From: Narcine bancroftii
Taxonomy: Eukaryota
Length of the DNA stretch: 64,000 nucleotides
Assembly (NCBI RefSeq): GCF_036971445.1
Contig: NC_091469.1
Coordinates: forward strand, 317,688,001 to 317,752,000
Direction: 5' to 3'
In this document: positions 11,764 to 61,179 of the stretch, one piece after another
Layout: each line of letters starts with the position of its first letter
Position numbering within the stretch: position 1 is the stretch's first letter
Program-made: the position numbers and the translations under genes
The notes under the pieces: generated by a model
What the model was told of the DNA's origin: nothing
What the model saw: the letters and a program-made list of their open reading frames with translations, nothing else
Database searches by the model: none

Positions 11764-13725
11764 CTGAAAGAAAATAGAAACACAGATTAATTGCAAAGAG
11801 AAAAAAACCTGAAGCAATCCCTTACTCATCACAGAGCACCAATGGCATAGTGGTATGTGAGTGGAAAGGAAAAGGTTGAGAACCACTGATTTAAACTTTC
11901 AATAACTCGTCCTGGGGGTGATTTTTGGTTTCACAGCAGATCATTTGAATTTATGGGTTTTTTTTTTAATGATCTTTTCTTTTTAGGGGTAGATGGGAGG
12001 GAGGGAGTGATGGCAGGGGGAGAAATTAGGTTTATTTACACACATGCATTCTTTTTTATATACAATTCAGTATTAACTGAAATGCAATTGTGTTTTTTTT
12101 TAATTTCTTAAATAAAATATTTTTTAAAAATTACTCAACATGCAGCAAAGGTATATGATTTCTAAGTACAAAGTATTTTTCAGCGGAGGACAGAGGGAGT
12201 TTTGCCCAAAAATGATTGCTATCAAGGGAGAATTAAGAGTATGTGGTGACGACGATCGAGCCGACGACCACAACAAAAGGCCAGCAGCACTGCCTCAACA
12301 AGCGAACTGGCAGGTGAACTGCAAGGGTAGCTTAAAGGCCATCAACCCCAAAATGATGCCGGCCTTGCTACGCAGACAACAGACAGGGACAGCACATGGG
12401 GAAGAAGGGCATTGTTATGCAGGAAAGTACCTGGGCACAGGAAACCCACTTTTGTTATGCATGTTGTGACGTCAGCTAAGGAGGGGGGGATGGGGACACA
12501 GCGGGAAGGTGCAAGTATAAAAGTCAGGCCTGAGCCCTAATAAATCTCAGAGCTTAACCTGACTACAATACGCGTGTGTGTCTTCACAGCTAACCTGCAT
12601 GGGGCAAGGATCTTCTCCAAGGTGGACCTCATGCAGGGATATCATCAAATCTCGGTACACCCTGATGATATTCCAAGACCGCCATCATCACCCTGTTCGG
12701 CCACTTCAAATTCCTCTGAATGCCGTTCAGGCTAAAGAAGGCTGCACAGACGTTCCAGCGACTCATGGACGCAGTGGGCCGAGATCTGGATGACACCTTC
12801 GTGTACCTGGATGTCATCTTGGTGGCAAGCATATGGCGCACATCCACAACCTCTACACTCGACTGAGCGAGTTCTCCCTGACGATCAACCCAGCCAAATG
12901 CAAGCTCAGAGTGGAGGCCATCAAGTTCCTCGGCCACAGGATAACCAGGGAAGGAGCCACACCACTATCCAATAAAGTGGGGGCCATCCGAAAGTTCCCC
13001 AAACCCAACACAACCAAGAAACTACAGGAGTTCGTGGGGATGATCAATTTCTATCACACATTCATCCCCTCAGCTGCCTGGATCATGTGGCCCTTGTAGA
13101 GTACAGAGCACATCAGAATGACCCCACGTCACTAGCCAAGAAAGATGCCTTTGCCAACGCAAGAAGAAAGGTGCAGAAAAAACTTTGTGAGTTGCAGGAC
13201 ATCTGGTTCAGCAAGGGCAATGAAATCCATGGCTGTGCAGACAGCCACGACATAAAGCGCTTCTACGATGCGCTTAAGGGTGTATACATACCCCAGTCCT
13301 CAGGCTCCTCACCCCTCCTCAACGTAGATGAGACGCAGCTGCTGACAGAGAAGAAACAGATTCTGGAACATTGGGCTGAGTACTTTTAAAAACATCCTTA
13401 ACCACCCTGTGTAGAGCTCGTTGAAAGAACCAAAGACTTGTTGATCCAAACCAAGGCTTTTATTAGCAAAAGACAGGAGCTCTTCACAGGTGGCCGACCA
13501 GTCCGGAATGATCCGACCTGGCTAGGGACACAACCCTTTAAGGCCCAGACAGTAGGCGTGGCTTAACTCTCAGCCAATCGCTGTAAGCACAGTCTAGATA
13601 CTGTAACTATATACACTATATACATTGGTGATAGATCTGTACTATCACATTCACCCCTTCTTGGAGAACTGACCCTGGAAAAAAAAACCAAACAAACGAG
13701 GGACAGAATGAAAGGAAGGGGTAGG

Positions 13726-16614
13726 TTAAGGACTGTAGCGGTCAGGGGGTCTGACCATCTGGCGTGACCGCCGTGGTGCCGGGATTGGGGTCGCTGGAGT
13801 GGTGTCGCCAATGGGCTCGTCGGGTACGACCGCTCCTTCGCTCAATTCCCCAGTCGTGTTGTCAGCAGGGTGGCCTGGGTCGTTGGGGTGCTGTTGGTCC
13901 TTCTGTTGCGGCATGGGGTCTGGGGAATAAAGAGTTGGGGAAGGTTGGGTTTGGGAGGTTTGCTGGGTCTACCACATCCTGAGCTAGGTCCCGCACCGAA
14001 ACAGTGTCCTCCCGCCCGTCTGGGAACTCGACGTAGGCGCAATGTGGGTTCGTGTGGAGTAGAGTCACTCGGTCGACCAAGGTGTCATTCTTTGAGTGTC
14101 GGACGTGGCGTCGCAAAAGGACGAGGCCAGGGACGGTGAGCCATGCCGATACAGTGGTTCCTGATTCGGATTTCCTCGGGAAAAGGAACATCCTATCGTG
14201 GGGGGTGGCATTTGTTGCGGTACATAGGAGGGAGTGGATGGAGTGTAAGGCACTAGTGAGAACCTCCTGCCAGTGAGAGGTGGGGAGACCTTTCGACCGG
14301 AGAGCCAGTGTAACCGCTCTCCATATGGTGGCATTCTCCCTCTCGACCTGGCCGTTACCGCGTGGGTTATAGCTCATGGTCCTGCTTGAAGCAATACCAC
14401 ACTCCAGAAGGTACTGTTGCAGCTCTGCGCTCATGAATGAGGACCCCCTATCACTGTGGATGGAATTGGGGTACCCGAAAATGGCGAAAATACTGTGAAG
14501 GGCCTGTATCACTGAGGTGGCAGTGGTGTCTGGGCAGGGCACAGCGAACGGGAAGCGGGAGTACTCGTCGATGGCCGTAAGGATGTAGGTATCATGGTTG
14601 GTCGACGGTAGGGGCCCCTTAAAGTCTACGCTAAGACACTCGAAGGGGTGGGTGGCTTTGATAACGTGGGAATTATCCGGACGGAAGAAGTGGGCTTGCA
14701 TTCAGTGTACAGCGAACAGGCTCGGGTCATGGAGCGGATCTCCTCGACTGTGTAGGGTAGGTTGCGCGCCTTCACAAAGTGGGCAAACCCAGTGACCCCT
14801 GGATGACAGAGCGCACGTCCCCCTGGAGAGTGTGTCAGGCGGGTCGTTGAGCTTACCAGGCCGGTACAGGATGTCATAGTTAAAGGTGGAGAGTTCGATT
14901 CTCCATCTGGCGATTTTGTCATTTTTTATCTTACCACGCTGGGTTTTGCTGAACATGAAGGAGACCGCGCGTTGATCAGTCAACAGTGTAAAGTGCCTCC
15001 CAGCGAGGTAATGTCTCCAACGACGCACCGCTTCAACCATGGCCTGGGCCTCCTTCTCGATCGAGGAGTGTCTACTCTCTGGACCCTGGAGGGTCCTGGA
15101 GAAGAAGGTTCCAGGCCGACCGGCCTGGTTCAAGGTGGCTGCCAGGGCGAAGTCGGATGCATTGCTCTCAACTTGAAACGGGACAGATTCATCGATCGCG
15201 TGCAGCTTCGCAGCGGGGATGTCGGATTTGATTCGATCGAAAGCCGCTCTGGCTTCAGTCGAGAGGGGAAAGGAGGTGGTCTTGATAAGAGGACGCGCCT
15301 TGTTGGCGTAGTGTGGAACCCATTGGGCGTAATACGAGAAAAGGCCCAGGCAGCGTTTGAGCGCTTTCTGGGTATGGGGGGGGGGGGCAAGTCCATTAGG
15401 GGACGCATGCGGTCAGGATCTGGCATGACTATCCCGTTCTCCACCACACAACCTAGAATAGCAAGTCGTGTGGTCCGGAAGACACGCTTGTCCAAATTAT
15501 AAGTCAGGTTCAGCCGACGGGCAGTTTGAAGAAATACGTCTAGGTTGGCGTCGTGGTCCTGCGTGTCGTGGCCGCAGATGGTGATATTGTCCAGATACGG
15601 GAAGGTAGCGGTTAGCCCGTTCTTGTCCACCATCTGGTCCATTTCCCGCTGGAAGACCGCGACACTATTCGTGACCCCGTATGGTACCCTGAGAAATTGA
15701 TATAGCCGTCCATTCGCTTCAAAGGCCGTGAATGGTCGGTCCTCACAGCGGATCGGGAGCTGGTGGTAGGCCGAACGTAGGTCAGTGGTGGAGAATATGC
15801 GGTATTGGGCGATCTGGTTCACCACATCCGTGATGCGTGGCAGAGGGTACGCATCCAGGAGCATGAAGCGGTTAATGGTCTGGCTATAGTCGACCACCGT
15901 CCATAGTTTTTCTCCGTTCTTGACAACTACCACATGGGCTCTCCAGGGACTTGAACTGGGTTCGATGATGCACTCATCCAGCAATCTACGCACTTCACTC
16001 CTAATGAATTGCCTGTTTTCGTAACTATATTGCCGACTTTTGGTGGCCACAGGCTTCCAGCCAGGGGTGAGGTTTGCGAAGAGTGCTGGAGGGGCAATTC
16101 GGAGTGTGGAAAGGCCGCAGGATTGGCCCCGGGGCATGGATTGCTCGGGTACTTCGGGGGTGGGGCGATGGCAGACAGAGGGGGGGGCGTGGGGTCCCCC
16201 AAAGTGTAGGGACACCGTTCGGAACTGACAGTGAAAGTCTAATCCCAGCAACACTGGGGCGCACAATTGGGGAAGGACGAATAATTTGAAGTGGGTGACT
16301 GTTACGCCCTGTACTTTCAGCGTGGCGATGCAATACCCCTTTATCCCGGTCGAGTGCAACCTCGTCGCTAATGAGATCCTCTGGGTAATGGGGATAATGT
16401 CAAGTCCCCAACGGAGGGCCAGATCTGGCTGGATAAAACTGTCAGTTGACCCAGAGTCAAATAAGCAATTGGTGTAGTGTCCATGCACTTTAATCAGTTC
16501 CATTGCTCTGGTGAGGGGATGAGAGCATTGCTGGTTTAGTGTTATTGAAGCAGTTGACAGGGGAGTTCCGCGTGATGACGTCATGCAACGGGATGATGTA
16601 ATAGATGTAGTCAA
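13726..16614 (-). pseudogene. Gypsy pol (protease, RT, RNase H, integrase) with frameshifts
   Basis: ORFs 15130..16614 (PR/RT), 14702..15133 (RNase H, EKEAQA..LLTDQRAV) and 13862..14701 (integrase). Confidence 0.92.
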
Positions 16615-17713
16615 CGCTGGAGGAGCAAGTTGGAGGACCTCCCGAAAGTGCTGTTGTGGCGGCGTCGGCGGATGCAGCGGTAGCGTCGGCCCCGGGGTTG
16701 CCTGTGGCGGTGGCAGCAGCAGCGGTTGCCACAGTCAGGACTGAGGCCGGGTCGAGTGTTCCGCACGGGGGCGAGAGGTGGGCCAACACCATGGTTGTGA
16801 GGGTGGGCTGCCCCTTCCGGGTTCGGCGTCTCCGTGATGTCAGGCATTGCCGTGCAGGGGAACCCTTGCTCTCATTGGACGAGAGGTCTGGGGAAGAAGA
16901 GTTTGAATGGGATAGTGGCGATTGGGGTTCACACGAGGCGCTCTGTTTGCCGGCGGCCATTTTAGACCTACAGACTGCAGCAAAGTGGCCCTTTTTAAGG
17001 CACTTCTGGCACCTGGCTTTTCTTGCTGGGCACTGGGACCTGCTGTGCTTGTCCCTTCCGCAGAAATAACATTTTGGGTTCGCACGGGGCAGTGTAGCAG
17101 CAGCCGACAGGCCATCAGTATCTCGCGGGGTGGTAGGGTAGAAGGGCACTCTACTCACATCAGAACGTGGGGTCCAGTCCCTAGAGAACTCGGTGGACTT
17201 TCAGGCTGCATCCTCCATTGTGATTGCAATCCGGGCCACGTCCTCTAGTTTTTCTACCCCTTGCTCGAGCAAGCGCAGCCTCACTTCGTTCGATCGGAGC
17301 CCGGCCACGTAGGCATCCCGGACGAGATCGTTTGTGATCTCGGCAGCAGTTTTGTCCACACAGTTACAGTCCTTGCCCAACGCCTTTAATACTTGTAAAT
17401 ATGCCCTCCTGGACTCGCCAGGCTGTTGCTTCCTCGACGCAAGCACGAGCCGGGCATGAACTCTGTTCACCGGTTGATCATACAGTTTTTTCAGTACCTT
17501 TATGGCTGCGGTGTAAGTGGTCTCATCCTGGATGTTCTCGTAGACTCTCAAGGACACCATAGACAGCAATGCTGTTAGACGCTGGTTATCCTCCTCCACC
17601 TCAATGAATCTCAGGAAGTTTTCAAAGTTCAGCAGCCAGAACTTAAAGGCTTTGAAGGCTGTAGCTGACTGTGGGTCAATATCAAGTTTTTCTGGCCGAG
17701 TTAAACGCTCCAT
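16490..17713 (-). pseudogene. Gypsy gag with an in-frame stop at 17201-17203
   Basis: ORFs 17201..17722 and 16490..17158 share one frame; knuckles CYFCGRDKHSRSQC and CQKCLKKGHFAAVC. Confidence 0.88.
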
Positions 17714-20700
17714 CCCTTTCAAAAAAAATTCTTTTTGCTAATAAAATTGTAGAGCTCATCGAAAGAATCAAAGACTTGTTGATCCAAACCAAGGCTTTTA
17801 TTAGCAAAAGACAGGAGCTCTTCACAGGTGGCCGACCAGTCCGGAATGATCCGACCTGGCTTGGGACACAACCCTTTAAGGCCCAGACAGTAGGCGTGGC
17901 TTAGCTCTCAGCCAATCGCTGTAAGCACAGTCTAGATACTGTAACTATATACACTATATACATTGGTGATAGATCTGTACTATCACACCCTGCTGACATC
18001 AACGACGAGGTCATTGCCCGCCTGCCCCAAGTAGAGATCAACAAGAACCTCGACATCCTCCTCACAGTAAATGAAGTCAGGAAGGCAGTGAAGCAACTCT
18101 CCTGTGGCAAAGTGCCAGGACCCGACGCAATCGCTGCTGAAGTGTATAAAACAGGAGGCCCTGTCATGATGCAAAAGCTGACTGTACTTTTCCAGTCCAT
18201 GTGGAGAAAGGGACAAGTCCCGCAACAGCTGAAAGATGCCGGTATAATCCACATCTACAAGAGGAAAGGCAACTGCCAGTCTTGCGACAACCACCGAGGC
18301 AACTCCCGCTTGTCCAATGCAGGGAAGATTCTGGCCCGCGTCCTGCTCAAATGCCTTCTCCAACATCTTGAGCAAGGTCTGCTTTCAGAAAGCCAGTGCG
18401 GCTACCATGTTGAACGTGGGACCGTGGACATGATTTTTGCTGTGAGCCAACTCCAGGAAAAATGGCAGGAGCAATACAGTGACCTCTTCATGACTTTGTT
18501 GATCTAACCAAGGCTTTCGATACGGTCAGCAGAGAAGGCTTGTGAAAGATCATGGAGAAGTTTGGCTGCCCCAGAAAGTTCATCACAATCATCTGGCAGT
18601 TCCACAGCAGTATGATGGTGAAAGTTCTGGATGAGTCGGAGGCAAATGGCATCAAACAAGGCTGCGTTCTCACCCCGACTCTGTTGAGTATGGTATTCTC
18701 TGCCATGCTGACAGATGCCTTCTGTAACTAAGAGGAAGGAATCCACGTCAGGTACAGGACTGACGGCAGGTTGTTCAACCTCAGGCGCCTGCAGTTACAA
18801 AGGTGCAAGAGACTGTCATCAGAGAATTTTTGTTTGCTGATGACTGCGAACTCAACGCCAGCCCAGAGCAGAAGATGCAGCGAGAAATGGACTGCTTCTT
18901 ACAAGCCTGCGACAACTTTGGTCTCACTATCAGCACCAAAAAGACTGAAGGTATGTACCAGCCTGCCCCAGGAAAGCCGTACCAGGAGCTGCGCATCACG
19001 GTGAAGGGCCAGAACCTCCAGGCAGTCGACAACTTCACCTACCTGGGCAGCACACTCTCTCGTGCAGTGAACACGGATGCTGAGGTCAACAACAGGATAG
19101 CCAAAGCCAGCGCTGCCTTTGGGAGACTCCGTGAGAACATCTGGGAGTGGAGAGGACTCAGCCTTACCACCAAACTGAAGGTCACTGTGCAGTGGTCCTT
19201 ACCACCCTTCTTTATGCCAGCGAGACCTGAACTGCCTACAGCAGACACACCAAACAGCTCAACCACTTTCATCTGAGCTGTCTCCGCAGACTCCTCCACA
19301 TCAGGTGGCAAGTCAAAGTCCCCAACACGGAAATCCTGGAACGAGCTGGGCTCTGCAGTGTTTACACCCTCCTGGTGAAAACCCAAGCCAGGTGGGCTGG
19401 ACATATGGTCAGAATGCAGCTTCTGTATGGAGAACTGTGTCATGGCAAGCGCTCAGTCAGGGGGGCAGAAGAAACATTACAAACACTGCCTCAAAGCATC
19501 CCTCAAAGGCCTGGATGTCGACATCAACACATGGGAGACCCTTTCCCTCGACCTTCCAGCTTAGCGCAGCAAGATCACCGCAGGAGCCTGTGCAGATGAA
19601 GTCAGGCGCATCACCGAGGCGCAACAAAAGCGTGCTGTGAGCCAGGCCCAAGCAGCATTCACCGCCACAACAGCACCCATCCACTTGTGTCCCACACGTG
19701 GGAGAGTGTTCAGGGTCTCACCAGTCATTTTCGGACCCACAGCCACCAATCTCCCATTTGATTTTGAAGTCATGGCCATCTTCGACTACGAAGGATGAAC
19801 AACAACAATCACAGGTCATCCCCTCAGCTGCCCAGATCACGTGGACCTTGTTCACCTGAATGGCAGGCAGGGCAAAGGAGATCACCTGGGACGATAAGTC
19901 AGCAGAAGCCTTCGTGAAGGCCAAGGAAGCCCTGACGGACGCCACTCTCCTAGCACATCCCAGGTCAGATGCTCCAATGGCCCTGAGAGAGGATGCTTCA
20001 GGAGCAGTAGATTGAAGGAAGTTGGCAGCCACTGACTTCCTTCACCAAACGTTTGTGACCTCCAGAAGTGAAGTACTGCGCTTTCGACAGAGAGCAACTG
20101 GCACTGTACTTACCCATCCACCACTATCATGACCACGGACAGGCTGGTGGGCAGCAAATATGTGTGGCATGGATTGTGGAAACAGATGAGGGGGTGGGTG
20201 AAGGCGTGCACGCAGTGCCAAGCAACCAAGGTACAATGACATACCAAGACCCCACCTCAGCACTTTCAGCCCACAGAACAAAGGTTTGACCACATCCACG
20301 TGGACATAGTAGGACCCATTGTCGGTATCCCAGGGTTTCATCTGTTCATGATGGTCGAGTGCTTCACCAGGTGCCCAAAAGCAGTCCCGCTGGGAGACAT
20401 GTCCACAACCTCGTGTGCCAGTGCCCTCATCTTGTCCTGGGTGGCATGGTTCGTGTTACCATCCCACATCACATCTGACAGAGAGGTCCAGATCACCTCC
20501 AATCTGTAGTCTGACCTCGCCAGCCTGTGGGGTGCCCAGCTGCATCAAACAACAGCCTACCACCCACAATCCAATGGGTTGGTGGAGCACTTCCACAGGC
20601 ACCTCTAAACCATGCTCATGACCAGACTTCAAGGACCCAATTTGGTAGATGAGCCACCATGGGCAAAGTTGGCCATCTACACGGCACCCAAGGAGGACCT

Positions 20701-21538
20701 CAACACTTCTTCAGACGAACTCATACCACTCCCAGATGGGCAGCAGGATGACTTTGCAGCATTCCTCAGCAGGCTATGGGAAAGAGCCGGTAAACTGGTC
20801 CCAATTCCACCTTCTAGGTATGGACATGCAAGGACCAACATACCCAAAGAACTGCAGGTCTGTGTGTATGTTTTCATTCGCAGGGGTTTACATTGTCCAC
20901 TGCTTCAGAGGCCATCCGCAACAACGGGGCTATGTTCAAGCTGGAGATCAGAGTCAAGACGGAGGTCTTCAACACAGACAGGCTGAAGTCAGCACACCTG
21001 GACCTGGAGTGCCTGGTCAAGACACCAACACCATGCTGAAGAGGTCGGCACCGAAGGTAGCAGAGACTTTGACCTCCGAGCACCCAGGACAATACCGTTG
21101 GTTCTGGAGGGGGGGGGGGGGGGTCATGTGGTGGCCCACTGCTGCAGCGGTTGAGCCAGCGCTCCGGGTGGCGATTGCAACCAAAGGTCAGCAGCGGCAC
21201 TGGCCTCAACAAGCGAACCGGCGGGTGAACAGCAAGGACAGCTTAAAGTCCAGTGACCCCAAAGTGGCACTGACCTTGCTGCGCAGCCAACAGACAGGGA
21301 CAGCGTACGGGGAAGGGCATTGTTATGCAGGAAAGTACCCACACAGGAAACCTGCATTTGTCATGCATGTTGTGACGTCAGCCAAGGGGGGGCCACGGTG
21401 GGAAGAGTGCAAGTATAAAAGTTGGGCCTGAGCCCTAATAAACTTGGAGCTTAACCTGACTACATGATATGTGTGTGTCTTCTTTCAAGTAGCATGCGGC
21501 TACAAGTATGGAATTAATGGTGCCATTAATGTTTGACC

Positions 21539-23321
21539 GTACCTGCTGCTTTGCCACTTTTCAGTTGTTCGATTGCAAAGCAGCAGGTATGGATGGAATC
21601 CCCCCAGAAGTCTGGAAGGCTGGCGACAAAACTCTGCATGCCAAACTGCATGAGTTTTTCAGGCTTTGTTGGGACCAAGGTAAACTGCCTCAGGATCTTC
21701 GTGATGCCACCATCATCACCCTGTACAAAAACAAAGGCGAGAAATCAGACTGCTCAAACTACAGGGGAATCACGTTGCTCTCCATTGCAGGCAAAATCTT
21801 CGCTAGGATTCTACTAAATAGAATAATACCTAGTGTCGCCGAGAATATTCTCCCAGAATCACAGTGCGGCTTTCGCGCAAACAGAGGAACCACTGACATG
21901 GTCTTTGCCCTCAGACAGCTCCAAGAAAAGTGCAGAGAACAAAACAAAGGACTCTACATCACCTTTGTTGACCTCACCAAAGCCTTCGACACCGTGAAGG
22001 GCTTTGGCAAATACTAGAGCGCATCGGATGTCCCCCAAAGTTCCTCAACATGATTATCCAACTGCACGAAAACCAACAAGGTCGGGTCAGATACAGCAAT
22101 GAGCTCTCTGAACCCTTCTCCATTAACAAAGGCGTGAAGCAAGGCTGTGTTCTCGCACCAACCCTCTTTTCAATCTTCTTCAGCATGATGCTGAACCAAG
22201 CCATGAAAGACCCCAACAATGAAGACGCTGTTTACATCCGGTACCGCACGGATGGCAGTCTCTTCAATCTGAGGCGCCTGCAAGCTCACACCAAGACACA
22301 AGAGAAACTTGTCCGTGAACTACTCTTTGCAGATGATGCCGCTTTAGTTGCCCATTCAGAGCCAGCTCTTCAGCGCTTGTCGTCCTGCTTTGCGGAAACT
22401 GCCAAAATGTTTGGCCTGGAAGTCAGCCTGAAGAAAACTGAGGTCCTCCATCAGCCAGCTCCCCACCATGACTACCAGCCCCCCCACATCTCCATCGGGC
22501 ACACAAAACTCAAAACGGTCAACCAGTTTACCTATCTCGGCTGCACCATTTCATCAGATGCAAGGATCGACAATGAGATAGACAACAGACTCGCCAAGGC
22601 AAATAGCGCCTTTGGAAGACTACACAAAAGAGTCTGGAAAAACAACCAACTGAAAAACCTCACAAAGATAAGCGTATACAGAGCCGTTGTCATACCCACA
22701 CTCCTGTTCGGCTCCGAATCATGGGTCCTCTACCGGCACCACCTACGGCTCCTAGAACGCTTCCACCAGCGTTGTCTCCGCTCCATCCTCAACATCCATT
22801 GGAGCGCTTTCATCCCTAACGTCGAAGTACTCGAGATGGCAGAGGTCGACAGCATCGAGTCCACGCTGCTGAAGATCCAGCTGCGCTGGGTGGGTCACGT
22901 CTCCAGAATGGAGGACCATCGCCTTCCCAAGATCGTGTTATATGGCGAGCTCTCCACTGGCCACCGTGACAGAGGTGCACCAAAGAAAAGGTACAAGGAC
23001 TGCCTAAAGAAATCTCTTGGTGCCTGCCACATTGACCACCGCCAGTGGGCTGATAACGCCTCAAACCGTGCATCTTGGCGCCTCACAGTTTGGCGGGCAG
23101 CAACCTCCTTTGAAGAAGACTGCAGAGCCCACCTCACTGACAAAAGGCAAAGGAGGAAAAACCCAACACCCAACCCCAACCAACCAATTTTCCCTTGCAA
23201 CCGCTGCAATCGTGTCTGCCTGTCCCGCATCGGACTTGTCAGCCACAAACGAGCCTGCAGCTGACGTGGACTTTTTACCCCCTCCATAAATCTTCGTCCG
23301 CGAAGCCAAGCCAAAAAAGAG
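21539..23321 (+). mobile_element. Young 5'-truncated RTE LINE with a short 5' inversion
   Basis: RT ORFs 21508..22017 and 22050..23264 (QGCVLAPTLF, LLFADD, C-terminal CxxC..HxxxC), one small deletion/frameshift near 21996, TSD AATGTTTGACC at 21528-21538 / 23322-23332. Confidence 0.96.
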
Positions 23322-38216: not shown

Positions 38217-38842
38217 CTCTGGATATTAAAAGTCTGATAGCTTGAGTGAAGAAACCGCCATCAAGTCCGGGGAGGCCACTGTGGGCCTGCTGCCGCGCCA
38301 CCATCTTGGACCAGTTTGCTGGAGTCTGATAGATTCTGGATATTAAAAGTCTGATAACTTGAGTGAAGAAACCACCATCAGGTCCAGGGAGGCCACTGTG
38401 GGCCTGATGCCACGCCACCATCTTGGACCAGTTTGCTGGAGTCTGATAGACTCTGGATATTAAAAGTCTGATAGCTTGAGTGAAGAAACCACCATCAGGC
38501 CCGGAGAGGCCACTGTGGGCCTGCTGCCGTGCCTCCATCTTAGACCAGGTTTACTGGAGTCTAATAGACTGGATATTAAAAGTCTGATAGCCTGAGTGAA
38601 GAAACCACCATCAGGTCCAGGGAGGCCACTGTGGGCCTGATGCCACGCCACCATCTTGGACCAGTTTGCTGGAGTCTAATAGACTCTGGATATTAAAAGT
38701 CTGATAGCTTGAGTGAAGAAACCACCATCAGGCCCGGAGAGACCACTGTGGGCCTGCTGCCATGCCTCCATTTTAGACCAGGTTTACTGGAGTCTAATAG
38801 ATTGGATATTAAAAGTCTGATAGCCTGAGTGAAGAAACCACC
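38217..38842. repeat. Tandem array of ~5.3 units of 116-117 bp
   Basis: ggatattaaaagtctgata recurs at 38221, 38338, 38455, 38571, 38688 and 38804. Confidence 0.97.
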
Positions 38843-40074
38843 ACAGTTCACAATCTATAGGAGCCCGGAAGCCTCGACATCAGAGGGCCTCATGATCCAA
38901 GATGGCGCAACGTCCATTGCTCATTGCAATGATTGACTAGATGATGAATAAATAAGTTGAAGGCAAATCAGCTGCTTTTACAGTCATGGCATTGGGTTAC
39001 ATAAGCATTAAATTAAAATCCAGTAAACCTCTGAAGCTCTGATTATTTGGAAATCCTGATGGTTTGGCATTTTTCCCCCTTCATTAATCTGGAAAGGGAA
39101 GCAGGGGCCCAGAATTCAAGTCGTTTGTGCGACCTGAACTGGGGAAGTCTGCATTGCATTCAAGGTGTGGGCCTTGAGCTGGGAGTGCAGTTGGAGCTAG
39201 GGTTGGGATCTGGAACACCAGATTTTGGTGAGTTTGCCTCTGGAGCAGTATTTCTCACTTCCTTCAAGATCATGGGGTTCACTGAAAATGTGACTATACT
39301 ACTGGGTAACTCATAAGCAAAAGAGAAATAAAAGAGTGTTAAATATTGAAAGGAATTACATCCAATAACCTGCTAATTTCAAGGGTGGTGGATTAACAGT
39401 TTTATTGAATGCACCTATTGAGATACTGAATACACATAATTTCAGTGTGTATTGAGCTGACAATCTTACACATGTGTCTCAAAGATCACCTGATGTGTAT
39501 TCATTCCACCATGTCAATATTACAAACAGTTTTGAGATCTTTGCTTTTTCAAAAGTTTTTATTTGACTCCCTATTTGAAGAAAATGGAACATTTACTATT
39601 TCGGGTGGAGAACTGGGAAGGGAGAAAGTTGATTTTGCAGAGGGAGTAGGGCAAGGGCAATATCTGATGACTTCAGGGTTCTATTGAGATAAATTGTAGA
39701 AATCAGTCAATTGATTGGCTAATGGGAGCAGTTAAAGAGAAAATAAATATAAATTGTGAGATGACTGCAGTTAGAGAGTGAGAATATAGATAAAGGAGAA
39801 TGAAAAGGTGATAGAGGTCAGCGATACTAATGTAAAATTGAGAAATAGCATCTGTCCATTTGAGTTGCAAGCATCTGGACTCACTATTGAATTCTGTAAC
39901 TTTTCCTGTTTCAAAATTGGCCATTTTGACTGGAGGTCATCTATTGGAGTATTTTGGAAGGGGAGGGATAGCAGCCAGATGCCGTGGTTCACGTGGGGAC
40001 AATGACATTGATAGGAGTGGAGATGAGGTCTTCGAGAGAATTTAGGGAGTTAGGAAGGTAGAACTTCAAGGGTG

Positions 40075-42430: not shown

Positions 42431-43149
42431 CCACCACCTCCCTCACCACAATTTGGAGCCATTGCTGGTCCAATTCCTTGAATTCTGATAACTGTATATT
42501 GTCTCCTGGGCTAGGATAGTATTTTGAGTGATTTTATATCTATATAATCTTACTGAAATCTTTCAGAATTTAGGCAGACAAAAGGAAATTTTATGTAATG
42601 TTACATTTTCTAGTTCATTATATTGGCAATAAAACATTCTTGAATCTTATAAGAGTCGTTTGGCACCAAATGTTTTCTCTGGAGGCGTATTAGCTTGTGA
42701 CATTTTCCATTTGAGGTTCATGTGATAGAACTTGCACTCCGAATGTCCCCGAGATCTTTTGAGTCCGTGAAATGGTATAAAAATTGTAATCATTTTTTAA
42801 AAATTACTTATTTAAAACCACACAATAAAACATACAATTAAAGCTAAATCAAAACAATACAAATAAATGTGTATATAAAAAAGAAAAAAAAATATGAACC
42901 CCCCCACCCCCATATACCACACCCCACCCCCATATACCACCCCTCCCCCCTCTGTCCCCCTACAAAGAAGAGAAAGAACGGGACAAGAGACCCTCAACAG
43001 GGGTACCTATTATTTTAGAGCAGTGGTTCTCAACCTTTTTCTTTCCACTTTAAGTCATCCCTATGCCATCGGGACCCTTTATTTTGCTTGAGAAAAATTG
43101 CCATTGACTCATTTTCTTTGGAGTTCTGAAGCCATGGACATAAGGAGTT

Positions 43150-44385
43150 AATGAGGGACGTCTCTGCTGTCATGTCGGTGATTGGGACGGCTTCCAGCCA
43201 TCTCGGGAACCTGTCCCATTGTAACAAGGCACCTTGCTCCTCAGACGCGTAGTGGGCCAACGATATCCACATGCACATGCTCGAACCTCTTGTGTGTTGA
43301 CTGGAAAGGTTGCAGTGGTGTCTTTATGAGGCTCTAGACCTTAGAGGTCTAGCAGTGTGCATGTCCTGGACCAGTGTCTGACCTGCTTATGTAGGCCATG
43401 CCACATGAAGTGACCTGTGGTTATCTGGGTGGTTGCCCAGATGGAAGGATGGGCTAACCCATGTAAAGTGTCAAAGATCTGGTGCCTACAGGCGGTCAGT
43501 ACAATGGGCCGTGGTTGCCCGGTAGAAGTGTCGCACTGGAGTTTGGTACCTCTGGACCCAATTTATATGCCTCGAGGTGGAGTCCGGTGACTGTTGTTCA
43601 GTATGCCAAGAGTTCATTGTCCCCCTGTTGTGCCTCTGCTAACACCACATAATCCACTCCTTGAGCCGAAGTGTGCACCGACTGGGTGGACATCCGGGAC
43701 AGGGTGTCGGCCATCACTTTGCTCTTCCCCGAGATATGCTTGATTGTGGTGATGAATTCAGTTATGAACGACTGGTGTCGCTGCTAGCGGGCTGGGCTGA
43801 CCATGAGTTGGACACTTTTGCAAAGGCAAAGGTGAGGGGCTTGTGATCGGTGAAGGTCATGAACTTCCTCCCTTCCAGGAAATACTTGAAGTGGTGAATG
43901 GCCAGATATAGGGGCAGCAGCTCTCTGTTGAAACCACTGTACTTGATTTCAGGGGGACGCAGGTGTCAGCTGAAGAAGGTTAGCGTCTTTCATTGGCCTG
44001 CAATTAACTGTTCAAATACGCCACCATCTGCCACTTCTGAGGCATTTACGGTGAGGGCATGGGGATGTCTACCCGGGTGTAGACCAGGAGCGTGGCATTT
44101 GCTAGAGCGTTCCTGGCCAAGTCGAAAGCCGCCGTCGCTTCTTCTGTCCAAGCTACCTCTTTGGTTTTGCCAGACATCAAGCCGAATAGAGGGCGCTTGA
44201 TCTGGGCCGCTGAGGAGATGAAACGGTGATAAAAATAAACCATCCTGACAAATTCCTGCAGGCCCTTGACTGTGTTGGGCCTGGCAAATTTACGAATGAC
44301 CTCCACTTTTCCTGACGGTTGATCTGGTGCCCCAAGAAGTCAATGGTGAGTAGGTCAAACTGGCACTTGGTGAAGTTGATCATGG
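43150..44385 (-). mobile_element. Decayed Gypsy pol fragment (CsRn1-like)
   Basis: IRKFARPNTVKGLQEFVRMVYFYHRFI...WTEEATAAFDLARNALANATLL; similar to 12833-13097 and 19850-19980. Confidence 0.85.
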
Positions 44386-46689: not shown

Positions 46690-47075
46690 GCACTGGTTGC
46701 TGGCAGTGATATCCTTGCTGCACAACCTACAATGAACCACGTCCTGGAGGTGACTGCGGTGGAGAGGAGACAGTCTTTGCAGAATGTAGATTTGCTAAGA
46801 GCATGTGGAGGAGGCCTTTGTCACAGTTCAATCCCAGCAGCAGTGTTGATGACCTATGGGCTGTTCCCGTGGATGCACACATCCAGAACTGGAAGGCCAT
46901 CAACTCGATGAAAGACGTATTTTTGTCTGCCAAGTCCTGTTGGTCTTTCAGTACCCAGAGATGGCGGGGAGGGAATGCCGCCAACTGGCACATTTCAGGC
47001 TGCAGGAGCACGTGCTGAGGGACACACTGAGGCATGGTGCAGCCAACACGAGGGCACTGGGCAGGAAGAACCACA
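46690..47075 (+). mobile_element. L1/Tx1-like LINE 3' fragment
   Basis: Decayed ORF pieces WKAINSMKD...LQEHVLRD resemble Tx1-type ORF2 C-termini. Confidence 0.5.
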
Positions 47076-47076
47076 C

Positions 47077-47437
47077 CAGTGGCTCTCAACCTTCTTCTTT
47101 CCACTCACATTCCACTTTAAGTAATCACTAGGCCATCGGTGCTCTGTGATTAGTAAGGGATTGCCTAAGGTGGGATGTGGGTGGAAATAGAAGGTTGAGA
47201 ATCACTGCTCTAGACCCAAATGTTACTGAAATATTTTGCTTGAAAAAAATTGTCATTGGCCCATTTCTTTTGGAGTTCTGAAACCGTGCACATAACGAGT
47301 CAATGAGGGACGAATAAAATAGTGGTTTTCAACCCACATCCCACCTTAAGCAATCCCTTACTAATCACAGAGCACCGATGGCCTAGTGATTACTTAAAGT
47401 GGAATGTGAGTGGAAAGAAGAAGGTTGAGAACCACTG
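47077..47437. mobile_element. hAT-type MITE family A (other copies ~43021-43155, 49833-50125, 58165-58473, 60125-60501, partial 11815-11888)
   Basis: CAGTGG(T/C)TCTCAACC...GGTTGAGAACCACTG TIRs and shared interior among copies. Confidence 0.85.
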
Positions 47438-48029
47438 GTCTAAATGGTGTTCCTCTTGTAAATAGTTTATTGTGAATAAAGTATAATTTTGGTTTAAAAA
47501 AGGCTTCAGGACTGCCGTAACCTGGTGCTTGCCTACACAAATACTCATTCTCATGTTTCTTATGATAGAGAAGGAGGCTATTCAACCCACTGAGTCTCTG
47601 CCAGCTTGCAGAGTATACCAACCAAATTCATTCCCCCACGTATTTCTCATTGACTTCTTGCCACATATCCAGAATCCCACCCTGTTTCTCTCACTACTAC
47701 CCAATGTTATAATCTATAATGCCACTTTACCCGACTACCACTATGTTGTTCTGGAAGGGATCTCCGATGCCATGGAAACGATTTGCTTGTTAAAATATTA
47801 ATAAGGAAACAATCCCCCACTGAAGCTATCATTTTAAAGGGATATTTTTCTGCCACACAGACATAGTTGAAGTACATTAATGCTAGGGCAGGCTGGGAAC
47901 CAGGTAGATTTTAGTTGTGCCGCACAACAACAACAACAACTAGGTTTTGTAATCTCAGTCACCACCTCCCCTCCTCTTCTGAAATGACTATGAAAATAGT
48001 TTCCTGAAAATCATGGGTGAAAGCAGACA

Positions 48030-49719: not shown

Positions 49720-50780
49720 ATGTGGGGTATTGTGAGCAGTTTGGAGCTCCTCATTTTAGAGAAGATGTGCTGAAGTTGGAAAAGGTTCAAAGGAGGTTCA
49801 CTAGAATGATTCTGGGAATGGAAGGGTCATCACAGGGGTTCTCAACCTTTTTTCTTTCCACTCACATCCCACTTTAAGTAATCCCTATCCAATCGGTTCT
49901 CTGTGATTAGTAAGGGATTGCTTAAGGTGGGATGTGGGTGGGAAGGGAAGGTTGAGAATCACTGCTCTAGACCCAATTGTTACTGAAATATTTTGCTTGA
50001 GAAAAATTGTCATTGGCCCATTTCCTTTGGAGTTCTGAAACTATGCACATAATGTATCAATGAGGGATAATTCAAACAGTGGTTTTCAAACTTTTTCTTT
50101 TCTCCCACATCCCACCTTAAGCAGTGCTTGTGCGTGAATCACAAGAGGTTGGTTTGCAGGTACAGCCAGCTATCAAGAAGGCAAATGGAATGCTGGCCTT
50201 CATTGCTGGAGGGATGCAATGTAAGAGCAAGGAAGTGATGCTGCAACTGTACAAGGTACTGGAGAGGCTGTGTCTGGAGTAGTATGAGCAGTTCTTCTCT
50301 GCTTACTTGAGGAAGGCTTTGGAAGTGGTGCAGAGGAGGTTCACCATCTTGAAGGGGTTGTCCCATGAGGAGAGATTGAGTTGTCTGGGACTGTACTCAC
50401 TGGAATTTAGGAGAATGAGAGGGGATCTTATAGAAACATATAAAATTATGAAAGGCATGGATAAAATAGAAGTAAGAAAGTTGTTTCCATTGGCAGGGGA
50501 CACCAGAACTAGGGGACATAGCCTCAGGATTCAGGGTAGTAGATTTAGGATGGAGATGAGGAAGAACCAGAGGCTGGTGAATCCGTGGAACTTACTGCCC
50601 ATTGAAGCAGTGGAGACGACCTCAGTAAATATGTTTTAAGACAAGGTTGCATAGAAGGGGAGTTAAAGGACATGGGGAAAAGTCAGGTCGATGGAGATGA
50701 GCAGATCAGCCATGATCTCATTGAATGGTGGAGGAGGGTTGACGGGCCGGCTGGCCGATTCCTGCTCCTATTTCTTATGA
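49720..50780 (+). mobile_element. CR1 LINE fragments with an intervening MITE A copy
   Basis: LEVVQRRFT...LGLYSLEFRRMRGDLIETYKIMKG motifs. Confidence 0.8.
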
Positions 50781-57420: not shown

Positions 57421-59497
57421 CACGCATGTCAAACTCTGGCCTTGGCCCGCGATATAATTATATTTGGTCCGCAAGATCATATTAAATATATATTAGAGTT
57501 GGCCCGCTGGCCGCCGCGCCAGTATAGTGCATGCACACTGAAGGTGAAAATGAAGACGCGGGAGGTGTGGAGGGATCTCAGAGTCCCGAATCCCGGGGAT
57601 CGGTGCGCTGCACTCAGCCTGCCCGGCTCCCAGACGCACAGATGCAGCTGGAGTTGGGGACCATCCTCGCTGGGTCTGTGCTTCAGTGGCGACGCCGGAC
57701 CGAACGTCTCGTTGGCGATGCCTTCCCCCTTGCTCCGTGCGTGGCGGACCCTGCCTCCCGCTCCTTTTGTTGGAGAAGAGCCCGGCGCCGTGAGATCGCA
57801 GTTTAATCCCTCTCCAACCATGGGAGGGGGGGTGGGAGCAACGCGCTCTTCTCAGTCAATTCCTCCACTGCCCCGGATGCCGGCGTTTCAACGGGGGGTT
57901 CGGGTGCCTTCGTCAGGCGACCAACTTGTTGGTCCAAGACAAGGGGAGAGTGTACAAACTCCATACAGACAGCACCTGAACTCGGGTGAACGTGGAGCTG
58001 CGACCCCACATTCCACATCAGGACTGTGTGTAAGATTGGGAGCAGTGAGATGGAAGCTTATTTTGTTCCTGTGATTTAAGCCTTTCTTGGGGTGGGAGGG
58101 GGGGTCCTTCATTGACCACTTGCCTAACAATTAACCTAATCAGATGTGGAGTTACCACAATACAACAGTTCTCAACCTTTTTCTTTCCACTCGCGTCCCT
58201 GTGCCATTGGTGCTCTGTGATTAGTAAGGGATTGCTTAAGGTGGTCTGTGGGTGGGAAGAAAAAGTTTGAAGACCACTGCTTTAATCATCCCTCATTGAC
58301 TCGTCATGTGCACGGTTTCAGAACACTAAAGGAAATGGGCCAATGACAATTTTTCTCAAGCAAAATATTTCAGTAACAATTGGGTCTAGAGCAGTGATTC
58401 TCACCATTTCCTTCCCACTCACATCCCACCTTAAGCAATCCCTTACTAATTACAGAGTTCCGATGGCATAGGGCACACATGTCAAACTCTAGCCCGCGGG
58501 CCAAATTTGGCCCACGATATAATTATATTTGGCCCGCAACATCATTTCAAAAATTTATTAGAGGTGGCCCGCTGGCCGCCGCGCCAGTATAGCGCATGCA
58601 CAGTAATACAACAAATCCCAGAATGCATTGGCATCAGCCTGCTAATCACCCCCACCTCCTCTGTTTACGTTGCAGGGTCTCACCGTGGACTCTGGTTTTG
58701 GGGCCTGGCCGGTGTCAGGGGAAGCCAAGGCCGCTTCCCAGCACCCGGAACCGGAGGCCTCGGGCCTGACCTCGCCAGGACCGTTGCCCACTCCCCCTCC
58801 CTGCCGCAGGCTGATCCGCGACTCACGGTGATAGGGCTGCTGATCCGCCGAGATGCCGCCCTGCAGCGAGAGCCGATGCCCCCGCACTGTCGTTATCCAA
58901 CCTGATCGCCCGCAAACCCCGCCTTCCCGCACACAGGCCTGAGTAAATATTATGAACTTTAATCTCAGGATAAAACGATCTTCCAATAGTTTCATGTCAC
59001 AGTGATAAATATATTCCTGGTTAAAAATGGTCCTGCACCTGGATACAAGCTCATTAGGCATAAAACTTGAAAAGTGTGTAAATCAAAGGATATCTGTACC
59101 AATGGAAAAAGGGCATGGCAAATAACCCTGCTAGAGTTCATGCCCACAATCAATCACCCATTTGATTGTTTCAGGAATCATGTTATTCTCCCACATTCTC
59201 AATAGCCCTCAGATTTTACTATTCGACAGCACACTAGCAACATTTGACAAATCCTCTATAGAGAAATATTATTTATTGAATATTTTATTTCTCATTTGTT
59301 CATGCTTCTGGAAAGAGTTTATCCAAAACTATTATTAAACATTTATTTTAAAATGAAAAAGTTTAACATTACATATGTTAAAAGAAGAGAAAACATGCAG
59401 ATGTTGTTGAAAATTTTCAATAAATATTTAGTTCGGCCCTCGACTTAGTCCAAGTTTTTAATTTTGGCCCTCTGTGAATTTGAGTTTGACACACCTG
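57421..59497 (+). mobile_element. Composite non-autonomous hAT element inserted into a probable L1 3' fragment
   Basis: Left end CACGCATGTCAAACTC, right end GAGTTTGACACACCTG, 8-bp TSD TATTAGAG (57413-57420 / 59498-59505); a second left end lies inside at 58474. Confidence 0.85.
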
Positions 59498-60124
59498 TAT
59501 TAGAGGAACATCTGATTTTTTTTCCCCCAATGTTAGACATGCCATCATGCCATATAACCATTGGGTATGAGAAGGAGAGACAGCATCTTTCCATCTCATC
59601 AATAATGATCGTCTAGCAATAAAGGAAGCGAAAGAGACTACATGGGATTGAAAGAAAGTTAATTTCAAATCAATTACCTGAGTTGATAGTTGTACTGATT
59701 TGATGCGGGTTACATTGCAGAGCATTTTTTGCCTCAACTTCAAGTTAACAGTAAGTGACTCCTGAACACAGACCCTCAGTACAGATAGCGGTTGATGCAG
59801 CTGTGTAACTCTGTGATCTTTGGATGGTTCCCAGGGACTGAGATCATCAACCCGGTTAAGATGGCCTTTGGACTGCCTGAAACTTGTTGATCTTCCTGCG
59901 TAAGGAAATGTCAGCAAGTGAGAGCTGCTGACTGATCCATTCCATGGTGCGGGAGCTTGTGCTGAGGGATGCACTAATTCTCAGGGCAGTCACCACAAAG
60001 ACTTGGTGGGGAAAGTCCACTGGCCTAATCATTCAACATTACTGATGTCCTGCCACCTCTGGACACCAAGAGACAGGGTTCTATGTAACAGCCGCTCAAA
60101 TGCTCGTGGGTTTATTATTTAGAC

Positions 60125-60501
60125 CAGTGGTTCTCAACCTTTCTCTTTCCACTCATATACCACTTTAAGTAATCCCTACGCCCTAAGTGCTCAGTGATTG
60201 CTAAGGGATTGCTTAAGGTGGGATGTGGGTGGGAAGGGAAGGTTAAGAATCACTGCTCTGGACCCAATTATGACTGAAATATTTTGCTTGAGAAAAATTG
60301 CCATTTTCCCATTTCCTTTGGAGTTCTGAAACCGTCCACACATTACGAGTTAATGAGGGACGATTAAAACAGGGGGTTTAAAACTTTTTCTTCCCACCTG
60401 CATCCCACCTTAAGCAATCCCTTACCAATCACAGAGCACCGATGGCCTAGGGATGACTTAAAGTGGGATGTGAGTGGAAAGAGAAAGGTTGAGAACCACT
60501 G
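60125..60501. mobile_element. hAT-type MITE family A, complete copy
   Basis: Intact CAGTGGTTCTCAACC TIRs at both ends. Confidence 0.88.
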
Positions 60502-61179
60502 GCCTAATCATTCGACATTGATTACACATTACTGATGTCCTGCCATCACTGGACACCAAGAGACTGGGTTCTGCATAACAGCCTCTCAAATGCTCGTGGG
60601 TTTATTACTTTGAGGAAACACGAGAAGGAGCGTTGATGCTCTTTTAAGGGAAATGTATTGATTCGATGGCACAAATAAGAAACAGCAGGTCATCTGGCCT
60701 GTGGAGGCTGGTCCACCGTTCAATAAGATCAGGGACGAAAACCCACTTGCCCGCCTGCTCCCCATAATCCTGAATTCTGATCTTCAATGATTCATTGGGA
60801 ATGTGGACCCCTTGTATTTCCTGCCAAGATAATAAAATATAATCTGATAGCAAGGCACATGGATAAATCCATTGGGCCAGTGGATTTTCAGACAAGTTTT
60901 CATTAAAAAGTGCACCTCAGGTACACTTCATCGCAGCCCAGGGAAACGTACCAACAAGATGGCAGGGGAAGGCCACACATGAAGGTGGCATTTCACACAC
61001 ACACATAATTGACGTGTTCCTTTTCCTACATTACCCGGACCTGGGTTGGCAGAGCATTGTAGCTGCCAAGAGCGGTGATGCGACTAAATTCTCCCCTCCT
61101 CCCCCAAAGAGGGACAATCAGGTGCAGATGTACTAAATTGGGGTGGGAGGCAATGAGCTAGAGGTCCATTGGGAGGCAG

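Follow-up and report, generated by a model that had tools for sequence, protein, structure and literature searches.

A Gypsy element of Narcine bancroftii with a primer-binding site complementary to its own LTR, and a likely capped leader primer

LTR retrotransposons that are primed by a tRNA carry a primer-binding site (PBS) beginning with TGG, the complement of the tRNA CCA end, a few bases from the LTR. A young Ty3/Gypsy element of 4.6 kb in the genome of Narcine bancroftii shows other letters at this position, and the question is which RNA starts its minus-strand DNA. The element lies on the minus strand of the stretch of DNA that was analyzed (64,000 nucleotides of contig NC_091469.1, positions 317,688,001 to 317,752,000, hereafter the window), where it occupies positions 13410-17987 within an RTE LINE as host site. 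Its LTRs run from TG to CA and differ from each other at 5 positions, and a target duplication, a polypurine tract (PPT) and the order gag, protease, RT, RNase H, integrase are those of a Ty3/Gypsy element (Table 1). In the window copy, the Pfam domains appear as protease, RT, RNase H and integrase, many genomic copies hold a single open frame of ~1450-1520 aa, and the best solved-structure match to the element protein is Ty3 Gag-Pol (E 6e-63). No match to a chromodomain or to SH3_Tf2-1 was obtained at E 0.05 in any of the six polyproteins scanned. The pattern of the U5-PBS junction occurs at 2785 places in the genome if one mismatch is allowed.

Relatives with 56-81% identity in the RT region are present in sharks, rays, a sea anemone, a damselfly and many marine contigs. 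Scans of viral and metagenome contigs with a single protein returned no relatives, nor did an alignment search of the viral contigs. Elements of the animal clade also occur in bacterial MAG records (L221-L228), most likely as host contamination. Some copies are TRIM-like, being internally deleted with the PBS retained (L002 1500-2900, L007, L013 and L018; proteins P0001 and P0004), and one of them is a tandem array with a 562-nt period. The gag of the element is found inside host gene models (DNAJB13, BRCA1, collectin-10 and endophilin-B1-like; proteins P0010-P0013 and P0006), which suggests LTR-driven chimeric transcripts or annotation artefacts. Elsewhere the window contains a second, better preserved RTE LINE fragment (21493-23264, plus strand), a 117-nt tandem repeat (38219-38843) and several copies of a MITE-like family with long terminal inverted repeats (11786-11900, 43080-43160, 47075-47449, 49849-50123, 58196-58473 and 60117-60513).

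Table 1. Features of the Gypsy element and of its proposed priming site, in window coordinates
Feature	Position	Strand	Basis or remark
Target site duplication, left of 5' LTR	17988..17992	-	5 bp, identical letters at 13405-13409
5' LTR, TG...CA	17748..17987	-	240 nt; direct repeat D6, 98%
TATA-like box CTTAAAGG	17873..17880	-	sequence; 33 nt before start site
Initiator TCATTCC, start A 17847	17843..17849	-	two retrocopies and run-off ends of primer copies
Leader, putative RNA primer, cap to ...AATAAAA	17796..17847	-	52 nt; start-site and cut-site ends
PBS-pairing LTR segment	17796..17809	-	contains AATAAA at 17802-17797
Predicted cut site	17795..17799	-	in the AAAA run or directly behind it, ahead of GCC; cannot be assigned to a single base
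Poly(A) site, R/U5 border	17778..17781	-	A-tailed copies
Unpaired single spacer A after LTR CA	17747..17747	-	A in 34/40 elements
Primer-binding site	17733..17746	-	exact complement of 17796-17809; no TGG
gag, two CCHC knuckles	16490..17713	-	stop at 17203-17201 interrupts the present copy
pol: protease, RT, RNase H, integrase	13862..16734	-	Pfam; present copy frameshifted
Polypurine tract	13650..13663	-	sequence; relatives have similar tracts
3' LTR	13410..13649	-	240 nt; direct repeat
Target site duplication, right copy	13405..13409	-	5 bp

On the minus strand, the 5' LTR ends with ...CTCTACA (at 17748) and is followed by the spacer A at 17747 and then by TTTTATTAGCAAAA (17746-17733). An earlier, sequence-only reading of this DNA had claimed that a tRNA-type PBS is missing here, and the 14-nt PBS, read directly, indeed does not begin with TGG. 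The same reading had described a perfect 14-nt inverted repeat between this site and an LTR segment including AATAAA. We recovered this repeat as an exact complement and found it kept in other copies, namely in 28/30 and 30/30 same-family copies; in a younger subfamily the PBS-LTR duplex extends to 16 bp. The repeat alone proves little, because it is one of three short-loop 14-bp inverted repeats in the window. The fold energy of 191 nt at the 5' region is not unusual (z -1.28), whole-region energy being uninformative, and Rfam gave no match at the PBS site. It is the position of the pairing and its covariation among relatives that raise it above chance.

For the covariation analysis, 150 loci were gathered: 2 of the element's own family, 60 diverged loci of its own genome and 88/89 found in metagenome or MAG contigs. 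Of the 150, 108 offered a gag start preceded by sufficient DNA, the PBS could be anchored by motif alone in 95, and grouping these at 80% gave 46 clusters. In 39/46 cluster medoids, the first 12 bases of the PBS agree with the LTR of the same element at 11 or 12 positions, compared with 2.85% of 2070 cross-cluster pairs in which the PBS fits the LTR of another cluster at that level, and the covariation expected of a PBS that pairs with its own LTR was thereby borne out. The 7/46 medoids below 11/12 are mostly decayed copies. After dropping 5 medoids under 9/12, the remaining 41 contain 475 Watson-Crick pairs, 4 G-U pairs and 13 mismatches in the 492 cells of duplex positions 1-12, and all four Watson-Crick pair types replace each other at positions 6-9 and 12. 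G-U pairs thus fill 4/492 cells vs 18% in loop helices, a scarcity to be expected of a PBS copied from the primer, in a count biased by the choice of the register through Watson-Crick matching. A sister family in the same genome illustrates these changes, with C-G replaced by T-A at one pair and one base inserted on both sides, and in other families the poly(A) hexamer itself changes together with the PBS.

The duplex is 12-18 bp long among the relatives; in 30/40 elements it has AAA at its end, with GCC or ACC next. A stem adjoining the end of the duplex pairs at 0.69 compared with 0.39 in shuffles and exceeds the shuffle mean in 30/40 elements. The third duplex of the Tf1 "pretzel", which involves the sequence downstream of the PBS, is at chance level (19/39 above the shuffle mean, mean z 0.04). 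Of the "pretzel" features, the central duplex is thus present and the adjacent stem partly so, and the third duplex is not supported.

AATAAA or ATTAAA lies within the paired segment in 28/39 families and is absent from it in 11/39, 2 of which carry the hexamer further down. In HIV-1, the 5' poly(A) signal is masked by a hairpin. The PBS-LTR duplex may also mask the 5' poly(A) signal and favor read-through in most families, which is plausible because unmasked LTRs do produce R-only RNA (see below); since 11/39 families lack the hexamer in the duplex, masking is not a clade-wide rule. A repeat that merely hides the poly(A) signal, with a host RNA such as a tRNA fragment as the actual primer and the fold-back junctions described below as slips of the RT, would fit the 28/39 families and the HIV-1 precedent. 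We nevertheless regard such a host primer as very unlikely: none of the 46 medoids has TGG at the start of the PBS, families within one genome differ in PBS and LTR together, 11/39 families pair without a hexamer, Rfam is blank at the site, and the start-site and GCC ends reported below would be left unexplained. Gmr1-like elements of the same genome carry TGG or TTGG shortly after the LTR (L255-L257).

We deduced RNA ends from genomic retrocopies. Two retrocopies, one in each of two sister families, comprise nothing but R, flanked by long target duplications (L262/L266 and L283), and both begin with a G that is not part of the LTR, followed by the initiator A (G+ATTC). Retrocopies of capped RNA can be recognized by an extra 5' G that derives from the cap. 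Its joining to the initiator A in both retrocopies places the transcription start at 17847, a position supported by these two copies plus the run-off ends described below and situated 38 nt upstream of the paired segment. The sequence-only reading had proposed a TATA-like/initiator start ~40 nt upstream of this segment, and the box at 17880-17873, the A at 17847 and the two retrocopies agree with it. In the 21/39 own-genome copies that carry the strict motif, the TATA-like box lies 76-96 nt from the duplex end, mostly 85. Downstream, the AATAAA is a working poly(A) signal since A-tailed copies end 16-19 nt after it: with a free-gap pattern (an A-run 0-22 nt after the LTR motif), this holds for 3/3 places, and with a fixed pattern 12/21 matches are A-tailed, two of which share a flank and are perhaps not independent.

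These ends bear on the possibility that transcription begins at the paired segment itself and the primer is only 14-16 nt long, as in strict Tf1 geometry. That mechanism is a known one (available text of PMC7175516), and a second, downstream start is conceivable. Against it, the two retrocopies begin with an extra G at a point 38-40 nt upstream, the TATA-initiator spacing is kept across families and primer copies run to the upstream start, so that we give it very little weight. The remark of the earlier reading that the geometry differs from Tf1 therefore stands, as the self-primer is not the very 5' end of the RNA.

In several non-ray relatives (L174, L177, L178, L208, L212, L218 and L228), a pyrimidine tract followed by CAG is located 15-30 nt before the paired segment. 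It resembles a splice or trans-splice acceptor, and the 5' part of the primer might be spliced there.

Which part of the RNA served as primer and template can be traced in faulty products of reverse transcription. At 403 genomic places (exact matches), U5, the spacer A and the PBS are followed by the complement of the leader/R and not by gag; the ratio of these 403 exact to the 2785 one-mismatch junctions is rough. We examined 100 of the 403, listed in chromosome order (93 plus 7), and left out of the counts all sets that had been selected for ends at tested positions. Exact 5-bp duplications border the LTR termini in 15/20 and 9/14 inserts with both ends visible among the matches listed, indicating that the fold-back inserts are cDNA products and not later DNA inversions.

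Among the matches listed, a whole LTR is found upstream of U5 in 27/93 junctions, and the other 66/93 are made up of 9 LTR deletions, 21 cases of host or unaligned sequence (5 near the cut), 32 internal joins and 4 snap-backs. Again within these matches, 25/32 internal joins start ≤9 nt from the AAAA/GCC border, from scattered donors that range between 378 and 4433, and 4/4 snap-backs end at it; the last 7 places contribute a further 2 and 3. This amounts to 34/41 listed cases (29/36 plus 5/5) at AAAA/GCC, compared with about 10% if ends were uniform (P about 1e-23 for 29/36), and one junction of the 41 (L408) starts at the transcription start site. The cluster is broad among the listed matches (-9 to +9), 8/32 internal joins begin 4-11 nt upstream, and microhomology blurs the positions. 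From this clustering we infer that the template usually ended at GCC, either because the RNA was cut there or because strong-stop DNA ended there. Any of the four A's would give the same DNA, so the cut is placed within this run and not at one base.

A primer acting in trans, that is, a separate short leader RNA derived from an R-only transcript trimmed to the duplex and annealed to uncut genomic RNA, would have the same sequence as the leader. R-only polyadenylated transcripts did exist (L262/L266 and L283), and the L408 junction begins at the start site as this model expects. However, an uncut template should be copied as strong-stop DNA up to the cap, yet 34/41 junctions among the matches listed lie at AAAA/GCC and only 1 at the start, and the conserved (G/A)CC with which the stem begins after the segment would have no role. 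Priming in trans hence appears unlikely, although it is the least improbable of the alternatives considered here.

The opposite ends of the junctions concern the primer itself. Where a primer copy jumps to an aligned internal donor, the end falls between -4 and +11 relative to the start site in 8/9 of the matches listed, and at -135 in the remaining one; three of the 8 share one donor and may represent one event, which leaves 6/7 distinct cases. Overshoots at the start-site ends are covered by microhomology, and roughly 13 ends that seem to lie at -83 to -135 among the listed matches are mostly alignment drop-offs in the variable U3. In a set selected for this end, L451-L453 stop exactly at the equivalent of 17847, and the single insert L453 unites strong-stop DNA that terminates at GCC with a primer copy that terminates at the start. 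In 60/93 junctions among the matches listed, the inverted arm continues beyond the start site as far as the first base of the LTR. Such arms are uninformative on the primer, because a plus strand folding back on its own leader is expected to produce them with any primer.

The sequence-only reading had proposed tRNA-free priming by the element's own R region, using either an internal or a 3'-terminal segment. The internal 5' segment is upheld by the covariation and by the LTR leader found as primer copy; the 3'-terminal segment does not fit. A genomic RNA 3' end trimmed to AATAAAA would offer an identical segment in the 3' copy of R, and U3 is present in most inverted arms (60/93 among the matches listed). 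But the U3 arms halt at the first base of the LTR with target duplications and do not go on into the PPT, the start site is where aborted copies break off, and strong-stop DNA ends at GCC and not at the cap, which makes this origin of the primer most improbable.

Some of the junction copies show further peculiarities. In L453 (G000:C8:354743600-354748600), a T run follows the start-site end of the primer copy, as if the RT had jumped from the cap end to the poly(A) tail. Palindromic mini-inserts of ~450 bp consist of one LTR plus inverted U3-R and are flanked by 5-bp duplications (e.g., L359, L360, L364, L386, L397, L398, L430, L432 and L438), indicating that the integrase accepts cDNA with two U3 ends; they could be a source of hairpin RNA or fragile sites. 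The copies L362, L391 and L435, and L451 and L452, keep the entire LTR, carry an extended PBS of 53 nt and are deleted up to one common internal point; they are either products of mis-transfer hot spots or members of small non-autonomous subfamilies.

Taken together, we propose that the PBS of this Gypsy element pairs with its own LTR and that the minus strand is likely primed by a capped 5' RNA fragment of ~52 nt, a reading to which we assign a probability of about 0.8. Transcription begins at the initiator A at 17847, as the two retrocopies show. Nucleotides +39 to +52 of the leader then bind the PBS, a pairing shown by covariation, beside a short, modestly supported stem that starts directly after the segment. 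As the template ends suggest, the RNA would be cut within or just after AAAA, before GCC, probably by the RNase H of the element by analogy to Tf1. From the new 3' end, RT would proceed through the spacer A, then U5 and the remaining ~16-19 nt of R, and these 16-19 nt would serve for strand transfer. Judging from the structure of the by-products, the primer would stay attached and be copied by the plus strand, thereby renewing the PBS; copying on to the cap, or folding back, would yield the aberrant cDNAs that were inserted by the integrase.

Self-priming is usually treated as a hallmark of the Tf1/sushi chromoviruses, and to our knowledge experimental proof exists only for fission-yeast Tf1. 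The available text of the sources describes self-priming for the Tf1/sushi group and predicts it for plant Tcn1 and TAR elements (PMC10085805, PMC6317226, PMC4600332). As in Tf1/Tf2 of Schizosaccharomyces pombe, Tj1 and Tf1/sushi elements generally, so far as these texts go, the PBS of the Narcine element is complementary to its own 5' LTR transcript (PMC7175516, PMC4600332, PMC10085805, PMC11042837). Also shared with Tf1/sushi would be the cut that frees the primer and the copying of the PBS into the cDNA 3' end, which the accessible part of PMC11042837 reports for Tf1. In Tf1, according to the portions available of PMC7175516, the RNA's first 11 bases anneal to the PBS and cleavage by RNase H falls between bases 11 and 12, whereas the Narcine element has 38 unpaired bases before a paired segment of 14-16 nt, giving a primer of ~52 nt. 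Unlike in Tf1/sushi, the paired segment usually contains the poly(A) signal, the LTR is followed by a single spacer base, and neither a chromodomain (6/6 polyproteins) nor the third "pretzel" duplex was detected. The plant Tcn1 chromoviruses and the TAR (Houba, Osr-1) copia elements resemble it in that self-priming was predicted from PBS-LTR complementarity; they belong to other lineages and hosts, self-priming is a prediction only, and the accessible part of PMC6317226 does not mention an internal primer or an overlap with the poly(A) signal.

As to the placement of the element, the 23 rows of its clade form one side of a 91/92 branch vs 7 other rows in an RT tree that holds no usable chromovirus reference. 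The RT piece of a sushi-like fossil (L250) grouped with the Gmr1-like rows. SH3_Tf2-1 matches in the genome, considered as sushi elements, were rejected as Gmr1-like, and a search for DUF4939 gave two decayed places. We presume a likeness to SURL of the Mag C-clade, as a lead for placement only. In the available text on this clade, short LTRs, a compact single frame, a CCHC gag and a wide spread in marine animals are features in common with the Narcine element (PMC6238403, PMC3601003). Priming of the Mag C-clade is not described in the accessible portions of PMC6238403 ("primer", 0 matches) or PMC3601003, and the motif is not present in the supplements of PMC6238403 that were searched. More generally, a search of openly available literature, with PMC3601003, PMC6238403, PMC10886601, PMC6934838 and PMC7472051 among the texts consulted, brought up no description of self-priming for such a lineage; prior cataloguing of the self-primed lineage is quite possible.

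The Narcine element thus represents a variant of known self-priming, which works like Tf1/sushi but departs from three features of that group: the cap-proximal primer, the chromodomain and the third duplex. A broader reading, which we put forward tentatively and at somewhat below even odds, is that a widespread chromodomain-less animal Gypsy lineage self-primes independently of Tf1/sushi. Its tRNA-sized capped leader (~45-65 nt) would be cut at the poly(A) signal, one duplex would both silence the 5' poly(A) signal and set the primer, and of the LTR-PBS junctions in this genome, at least one in seven would be a fold-back caused by the long unremoved primer. Primer identity, cut, start and poly(A) site become readable from the genome alone through integrated faulty cDNAs and retrocopies marked by the cap, and the RNA ends derived in this way are exact, testable predictions. 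Annotation tools that require a tRNA PBS would miss such elements. For the family, the proposed mechanism would extend self-priming to a large animal lineage with another geometry, a long capped primer overlapping the poly(A) signal, and elements primed in this manner would escape silencing by tRNA fragments.
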